Shown one piece after another: positions 53,028 through 53,843 of a DNA stretch of 64,000 nt. The stretch is from Escherichia coli (lineage in GTDB: Bacteria; Pseudomonadota; Gammaproteobacteria; Enterobacterales; Enterobacteriaceae). Each line of letters starts with the position of its first letter. The stretch's first letter is position 1. The DNA is taken from assembly GCF_003018255.1 (NCBI RefSeq), contig NZ_CP027440.1, one strand, 5' to 3'. Below the pieces are notes generated by a model. It was given only the letters and a program-made list of their open reading frames with translations, had not been told where the DNA came from and searched no databases. The translations under genes and the position numbers were made by a program.

Positions 53028-53330
53028 TTATTCCTCTGAATTATCGATTACACTGTATTCCCCGGTTAATACAGAGGAATCTGCAGGATCGATTGTCAGT
53101 GGTTCCTTTTCATCCATTGATACTGCACGCTGGATCTCAATTGATACGGGCAGATATTTGAACAGGCGACGAATAGCCGTTTTCTTTGCCATTTCTTCCC
53201 AGTGAGTTACCCACGGCCCGTTATTACCAGCTTTACTCTGGCTGCGCACCAGCTCAATCTGTTTGCGCGTCATAACTTCAAACTGAGTACCTCCGTCTTT
53301 CAGTCTTGCGACAGCATAGACGTGGGTATC
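53028..53330 (-). pseudogene. recT: recT 3' fragment (C-terminal about 80-100 codons of the RecT recombinase); 5' part deleted
   Basis: Translation ...[81 protein letters not shown] matches recalled RecT C-terminus; upstream junction about 53300-53345. Confidence 0.7.
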
Positions 53331-53333
53331 AGT

Positions 53334-53843
53334 GGCAGTGTGAATGCGAACTCCGGGACGCTCAACAACGTCACGATTAATGAGAACTGTCAGATTAAGG
53401 GGAAACTGTCAGCCAATCAGATTGAAGGCGATATTGTCAAAACGGTCAGCAAGTCTTTCCCCCGCACGAACAGTTATGCCAGTGGCACCATCACGGTAAG
53501 AATCAGTGATGATCAGAAATTTGACCGGCAGGTCATGATACCGCCAGTGTTATTCCGCGGTGGTAAGCATGAGAATTTCAACAGTAATAACCAACAGTCA
53601 TACTGGTATTCAACCTGCCGGTTAAGAGTGACCCTCAATGGTCAGGAGATTTTTAATCAGTCCACGACGGATGCTCAGGGCGTATTTTCCTCCGTTATAG
53701 ATATGCCTGCCGGACAGGGGACGCTGACACTGACATTCACCGTATCTTCATCAGGAGCGAATAACTGGACACCAACAACCAGTATCAGCGATCTGCTGGT
53801 TGTGGTGATGAAAAAATCCACAGCAGGTATCAGTATCAGCTGA
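53334..53843 (+). pseudogene. Lambda J (tail tip / host specificity protein) 3' fragment, last about 170 codons
   Basis: Translation ...[37 protein letters not shown]...[42 protein letters not shown] resembles the C-terminal end of lambda J; no N-terminal 1000 codons present; ORF-track N-extension (53202-53333) is antisense to the recT fragment. Confidence 0.65.

Follow-up and report, generated by a model that had tools for sequence, protein, structure and literature searches.

The window analysed here, a stretch of 64,000 nucleotides of Escherichia coli DNA (NZ_CP027440.1), holds beside ttcA the 3' ends of two phage genes, recT and J, which in an intact prophage of the same kind stand some 36 kb apart. 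How were these two genes brought together, what went with the DNA between them, and what determined the points at which they were broken?

Structure of the recT-J joint

The two truncated genes, the joint and the reading frame that crosses it are placed as follows.

53028-53328, minus strand: recT 3' fragment (pseudogene), stop and last 99 complete codons; from profile, BLAST and three-way alignment
53327-53843, plus strand: 3' fragment of J (tail tip/host specificity), codons 962-1132 and stop; from BLAST, profile and alignment
53327-53328: deletion joint, a TA dinucleotide present in both parents (recT GGGTA^ACC, J GGATA^TCA, where ^ marks the bond); from three-way alignment with the reference locus L001
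53202-53843, plus strand: accidental open reading frame of 213 aa, GTG start, 42 codons of antisense recT running in frame into J

An earlier note on this DNA had read here the last 80 to 100 or so codons of recT on the minus strand and the last 170 or so codons of a J-type tail-tip protein on the plus strand, separated by about 50 bp. Both identifications were borne out, with 99 and 171 codons respectively, each followed by its stop; the gap was not, as the two fragments abut without any spacer and share 2 bp (TA). The RecT profile NF007351 (NCBIfam) matches 53031-53330 on the minus strand at profile positions 170-268 of 275 (E 9.5e-49), and BLAST against annotated recT genes gives 99.9% identity up to 53328, so that only the C-terminal part of the RecT domain (about 269 aa) is present. 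On the J side, the lambda_TipJ profile NF049904 matches 53328-53840 on the plus strand at positions 988-1163 of 1163 (E 8e-76), and annotated gpJ genes are 99.9-100% identical from 53324/53327 onward. Full-length J has about 1130 aa, with an N-terminal hub, FNIII domains and a C-terminal receptor-binding domain; the 171 codons left encode a 46-aa linker and the complete receptor-binding domain (Ig_GpJ_C, Pfam). A full recT or J elsewhere, which the earlier note had named as a sign of mis-assigned coordinates, is not found in the 44-64 kb part of the window. Neither the recT nor the J piece is functional; both are debris. The 213-aa frame is accidental, because it is antisense recT that reads in frame into J; an NCBI contig of 4.89 Mb is the one recorded source of the exact chimeric protein.

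As alignment reference we used the locus of E. coli Eco_23-2667 (L001), in which an intact sitABCD prophage occupies the stretch from ttcA to the sit genes. The window corresponds to this prophage minus 36,005 bp, with both flanks collinear, which upholds the earlier suggestion that everything between recT and J is missing. The exact three-way alignment follows recT through ...GACGTGGGTA and finds J resuming at TCAGTGGCAG, placing the joint between 53326 and 53329; in L001 coordinates, the recT side is at 4604 and the J side at 40609/40610 (window 53328/53329). GGGTA of recT and GGATA of J are identical at 4 of 5 positions, the TA being the only part shared perfectly. According to the L001 annotation, the missing DNA comprises recT codons 1-170, recE and kilR; a repressor/cro pair, ydaT-U-V, replication genes, Q-region genes and two tRNAs; and, in the late part, lysis, terminase, portal, protease and capsid genes and all tail genes, with J codons 1-961. 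Since the immunity, replication, lysis and morphogenesis modules all lie inside these 36,005 bp, the element in the window is a remnant with no life-cycle capacity.

The earlier note had also asked whether the junction bears microhomology or the scar of an insertion sequence (IS). Microhomology is there, of 2 bp only; no IS scar was found. Around 53328 we detected no IS ends, target duplications or repeats, and recT runs straight into J. An adjacent deletion mediated by an IS was rejected for want of an IS, terminal repeats or a target duplication at the joint. Neither breakpoint shows a good match to the longest word shared by attL and attR (AAATGGGGCAAA), the att core being only loosely defined; with this word unmatched and the joint 2.3 kb from the ttcA border, deletion by the integrase at a secondary att site was discarded as well. 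A crossover by a Din-type invertase (Pin/Gin) was likewise set aside, as the J site has no second copy with up to 3 mismatches in L001 or in the window; there is also no pin gene between stf and the MFS gene of the window.

The island that remains

On either side of the joint the following features were identified.

50057-50992, minus strand: ttcA, host gene at the left attachment border (Rac integration site), 311-aa open reading frame, annotated in 99.7% matches
51044-52279, minus strand: intR, intact tyrosine integrase of 411 aa, length and position as intR of L001, tyrosine recombinase matches
52281-52520, minus strand: xisR excisionase reading frame, by BLAST to annotated xisR; annotated start probably at 52496
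52596-52784, minus strand: DUF1187 family gene (NCBIfam NF007283, E 2.8e-41; L001 annotation)
52600-52778, plus strand: RalA antitoxin sRNA (Rfam RF02694, 217 bits, full length)
52777-52971, minus strand: ralR (lar), type I toxin/restriction alleviation (NCBIfam NF007260, 1-64 of 64, E 4e-49)
53861-53890, plus strand: terminator-like hairpin and T-run after J
53910-54509, plus strand: lom, Ail/Lom outer-membrane protein (reading frame, BLAST, profile)
54568-57879, plus strand: stf, side tail fibre gene, 1103 aa (reading frame, BLAST)
57928-58059, plus strand: tail fibre assembly (tfa) fragment, mapped from annotated pseudogenes in L079 and L183
about 58691-58790: second tfa fragment, mapped from the same pseudogenes
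58988-60190, minus strand: cargo gene for a Bcr/CflA family MFS efflux transporter (NCBIfam TIGR00710 above cut-off; annotation)
60953-61810, minus strand: sitD, reading frame mapped, as are the next two, from the annotated sitABCD of L183
61807-62664, minus strand: sitC
62661-63488, minus strand: sitB
up to 64000, minus strand: 3' part of sitA, cut by the window end, mapped from the L183 annotation

This inventory agrees in all its parts with the reduced remnant at ttcA that had been proposed, with int, xis and lar on the left and lom, stf and cargo on the right. intR and xisR are 99-100% identical to annotated genes and adjoin ttcA, as in the Rac family; the counterpart of xisR in L001 is 3557-3772 (offset 48,724). 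The early left operon keeps ralR and RalA complete and the last 99 codons of recT, and recE is absent. At the other end, sitD, sitC, sitB and the partial sitA, genes for an iron/manganese transporter carried as cargo of a lambda-like prophage, adjoin stf, the tfa fragments and int, that is, the phage-derived flanks typical of PAI sit. The right border of the Rac site, where the element stops, lies between sitA and uspF in relatives, which gives the remnant a length of about 14.5 kb. The RalR toxin gene and full-length RalA survive beside the deletion (52600-52971) as a candidate stabilising module and, judging from the intact sequences of intR, xisR and RalR/RalA, the island may still be excisable and stabilised.

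Distribution of the joint

BLAST found no copy of the joint among 5,426 complete RefSeq E. coli genomes, and the junction sequence has no match among GTDB species representatives. Searching with the exact 167-aa J reading frame, we reached contigs with the same ttcA-intR-...-recT'/'J-lom-stf layout, and at least 12 contigs of draft assemblies carry the same joint: L197, 100% identical over 5.5 kb, L196, 99.96% identical, and 10 similar places. Absent from the complete genomes and GTDB representatives yet present in these drafts, the joint is lineage-private, not absent from nature, and it can be used as a lineage marker. Nothing specific points to an artefact of assembly or of chimeric reads, the two sides having only 2 bp in common, an overlap insufficient to drive an assembler to a mis-join; and since the identical junction recurs in NCBI assemblies made independently, its contigs being 185-198 kb long, with both flanks collinear with a real prophage, we regard such an artefact as extremely improbable.

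The left 23 kb of the window is contiguous E. coli sequence, 99.7% identical to strains 200177 and GPEC1352/1354/1356, and this rules out a Shigella origin. In these closest strains recT is complete; in the GPEC strains, the matches to the recT side and to the lom-sit side lie about 40 kb apart. The backbone-closest strains carry a different allele of the J receptor-binding domain, the match beginning only at 53829.

Origin of the deletion

We consider it highly probable that the locus results from a single RecA-independent microhomology deletion in a Rac-family sitABCD prophage of about 50 kb at ttcA, leaving a 'grounded' remnant of about 14.5 kb. The starting point would be a lambdoid prophage of roughly this size with sitABCD and the MFS transporter as cargo. 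One illegitimate deletion would then join the antisense of recT codon 170/171 to J codon 962 by means of the 2-bp microhomology TA, inside GGGTA/GGATA, and remove 36 kb, with loss of the recombination, killing, immunity, replication, lysis, head and most tail functions. Other deletions in the early region of Rac-type prophages, joining recT to ydaU, ydaV or ydaT, also use microhomologies of 2-12 bp (TA in L188, GGGG in L192 and 12 nt in L190), which shows microhomology deletion to be the usual route of decay. The reading is also in keeping with the size variation and instability published for PAI sit (PMC7545054) and with the existence of intact lambda-like sitABCD prophages such as Perceval (PMC9928086). 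Every function for killing the host or making virions has gone and the cargo has been kept; this is presumably why the deletion persisted and is now common to a small lineage.

The module to the right of the joint (53329-58061, comprising the J stub, lom, stf and the tfa fragment) is 99.6-99.8% identical to the corresponding modules of DLP12-type remnants, of strains C10 and C11 and of attLambda remnants, against only 96-98%, in patches, for the intact sit prophages at ttcA. Over the first 1,272 nt of the module (53329-54600) there are 0 mismatches to the J'-lom sequences of these same loci, the DLP12-type remnants being L206, L208 and L209. The DLP12-type remnant, a terminase A::J fusion made 420 nt upstream of the J site, is widespread and common in complete genomes; in C10 and C11, J is interrupted by IS3. 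Compared with L079/L184, L080, L081 and L206-L209, the module of the window is 99.6-100% identical, and it looks like a shared, exchangeable unit.

From these identities, higher with other loci than with the sit prophages at ttcA, the module may have been swapped in, perhaps at the very step at which the joint formed. Either this exchange would have come before the deletion, or the joint would stem from repair templated by another copy. Under such templated, homology-facilitated repair, a break would be mended on another J'-lom-stf module, for example that of a DLP12-type remnant; the copied strand would leave its template near the J site and anneal by microhomology to the resected recT end. 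The absence of mismatches over 53329-54600, the closeness of the whole 4.7-kb module to other loci and the other J allele of the backbone-closest strains would all follow, as would the position of the microhomology, which at the J-site joints described below is always directly to the left of the bond, where a 3' end extending leftwards would place it. However, an ordinary homologous exchange of the module before the deletion gives the same identities, copying has in this scheme no reason to stop at one bond, and the window is silent on whether the strain carries a DLP12-type module. We judge templated repair unlikely, and keep a simple microhomology deletion as the origin of the joint. The J side of that deletion calls for separate attention.

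A recurrent endpoint in J

Besides the deletion of the window, at least 10 other independent deletions end at the same J-side bond, GGATA^TCAGTGG. To its right the J site reads TCAGTGG[C/T]A[G/A]TGTGAATGC, within the stretch GCGGATATCAGTGG. Chimeras were found by protein searches with the J stub, after which their reading frames and DNA were read. The eleven left partners so counted include those of the window and of the joint in strains E92/E94, the eleventh being the J N-terminal fusion P0006; ten joints were read at the nucleotide level. Partners, carriers and the sequence left of the bond are as follows.

recT, antisense; the window; GGGTA
lambda int, antisense; E92/E94 and at least 8 drafts; GGTTA
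capsid E; L005; GGATA
tail I; L103; GGATA
J, internal; L102; GGATA
J N-terminus (protein P0006); L002-L004, 20 contigs read; ACA
cro/ydaS-like gene; L006; CGGATA
endolysin, in a different receptor allele; L185; GCGGGTA
DUF1441, first position; L100; CCGTA
DUF1441, second position; L101; CATG

The stretches within which the ten crossovers can lie have nothing but A(-1)^T(0) in common. Their right-hand pieces differ by up to 3%, from which we take them to be separate events. The joint types looked up among the 5,426 complete genomes are rare: those of the window, L002 and L005 have 0 occurrences, and the int type has 2. About 20 other J chimeras are scattered over -420 to +270 nt, no position having more than 2-3, and half of the joints within about 375 nt of the J site fall in one 3-nt window. 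A rough Poisson estimate of our own puts this clustering at the order of 1e-16, far beyond chance, for a collection shaped by a bias towards short reading frames, by in-frame fusions only and by clustering at 90%. BLAST sampling of complete genomes with the best place per record is unable to expose chimeric copies of J, and predicted viral contigs (IMG/VR) gave no J-site chimera.

Random breakage followed by pairing over 2 bp does not account for the choice of this bond. Several sources of specificity were considered. The site is not the edge of a homology block, for among 136 distinct native sequences it is no major mosaic boundary, the transition peaks nearby being at about +40 to +60, -140 and -200. 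A blunt cut of EcoRV type at the embedded GATATC was also rejected, as the microhomologies use bases left of such a cut and the L101 joint has no A at -1. A resemblance to a Xer/dif-like site amounts to 7 of 11 arm positions, in a single register whose cleavage point clashes with the window joint. The J site also resembles the lambda operator at 12 of 17 positions, judged by eye only; this likeness is not applicable across phages that differ in immunity.

A sequence-specific agent could have made the break on the J side, with prophage collapse as a by-product; candidates are a nickase or nuclease, a site of topoisomerase or gyrase action, a transposase working on a short-lived insertion, and a recombinase at pseudo-sites. 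Eleven independent left partners at one bond, when the other J chimeras are so scattered, are what such an agent would produce, and 7 of the 10 left partners read at the nucleotide level end in GGNTA. This preference is nevertheless equally expected from plain microhomology to a fixed end. Moreover, there is no resident IS in about 250 native copies of the site, no hairpin (z -0.47), no Chi sequence over 450 nt around it, neither a partner nor an inverted copy (up to 3 mismatches, L001 and the window for a second copy) and no likeness to Din-invertase, Xer or lambda att sites as judged by eye. We therefore find an agent of this kind doubtful.

The constant position of the microhomology, on the left flank of the bond, is what one would see if a 3' end derived from J extended 5-8 nt beyond the bond before annealing to the resected left end; such an end could come from a nick, from stalled synthesis or from synthesis that dissociates. 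We tentatively put forward, as a possibility short of an expectation, that GGATA^TCAGTGG, at the border between the shaft and the receptor-binding domain, is a site-specific start of DNA breakage or strand dissociation, owing perhaps to a nick, to a site for a topoisomerase or nuclease, or to repair synthesis halting there. If so, repeated one-sided deletions would generate islands of the form 'integrase arm + J receptor domain-lom-stf + cargo', and the same bond might also underlie the mobility of host-range modules. The recurrent endpoint, if upheld, would mean that prophage collapse is channelled through a weak point beside the receptor-binding module and is not random, which would bear on how tail-fibre and host-range modules, with the morons downstream of them, persist and spread in E. 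coli. It is the only feature of this locus likely to surprise a specialist.

Relation to known prophages and islands

The Rac prophage of E. coli K-12 occupies the same ttcA site as the element in the window and has the same left arm (intR, xisR, DUF1187 gene, ralR/RalA, recT) and a similar right arm (J-like fragment, lom, stf, tfa), and it is also defective by internal deletion. K-12 Rac keeps recE, immunity and replication genes and trkG, is not known to carry sitABCD, and has its tail-region break at a place different from that of the window. In contrast to K-12 Rac, the window has lost everything from recE through most of J, and its cargo is the MFS gene and sitABCD.

Intact lambdoid prophages with sitABCD, that of Eco_23-2667 at ttcA and Perceval of LF82, have the backbone and cargo seen in the window. 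Perceval is an intact lambda-like prophage that carries sitABCD as morons (PMC9928086). Both are complete, and Perceval is inducible, whereas the element in the window is unable to replicate, to lyse its host or to form particles. The passage on PAI sit of Shigella flexneri and E. coli in PMC7545054 describes islands of 10-34 kb, unstable, with many rearrangements, deletions and insertion sequences; it cites Fisher et al. 2009 for this, and in that literature homologous recombination and IS elements are held mainly responsible for the instability. Compared with this literature, the window presents a clean microhomology deletion without IS, at the Rac/ttcA site.

Another close parallel is the attLambda remnant of E92/E94 (int/'J-lom-stf), which shares the J endpoint to the nucleotide, an identical J'-lom sequence, a 2-bp TA overlap (GGTTA/GGATA) and the layout of integrase arm, tail-fibre arm and cargo. 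It differs by its lambda int at ybhC/bio, by its left partner, int at about codon 14, and by its AraC-type cargo. In E94 (L184 10706-12236), an AraC-family regulator and IS fragments form this right-hand cargo, in a layout analogous to that of the sit island.

As a deletion, the joint is thus an ordinary further instance of prophage collapse by illegitimate deletion, in a PAI sit-type island at the Rac site. Its value is that it records, to the nucleotide, the chromosomal fixation of a virulence-associated metal transporter cargo, sitABCD; a single deletion that strips the carrier phage of its dangerous functions is a textbook route of prophage domestication.

Other endpoints and fusions

On the recT side, L001 position 4604 is the endpoint of both the window deletion and that of L188, a coincidence that is weak (p about 0.2), as retrieval limits the breakpoints to a window of about 100 nt. 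In L188, L189, L190, L192, L194 and L195, one segment of about 90 nt inside recT (L001 4588-4675) takes in the deletion endpoints of other Rac-type prophages, two IS3-family insertions and one other IS insertion.

Among the J chimeras, the DUF1441 left end ...HDPSR of P0003 and P0260 is joined to two different J positions, and the J endpoint that starts with KHEREH has two partners (P0260 and P0261). In another allele of the receptor domain, three partners (P0233, P0234 and P0235) meet J within two codons at TVRVYDD. A 536-bp scaffold attributed to the marine Bacteroidota Ancylomarina sp. (L099, NZ_SADB01000170.1) exactly matches E. coli prophage J and is probably a contamination of that assembly. 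Two J-site chimera contigs bear additional rearrangements, a reading frame fusing tail genes L and K (L::K; L103 927-1922) and a lom-to-stf deletion (L102, about 1192); some remnants appear to have gone through serial deletions.
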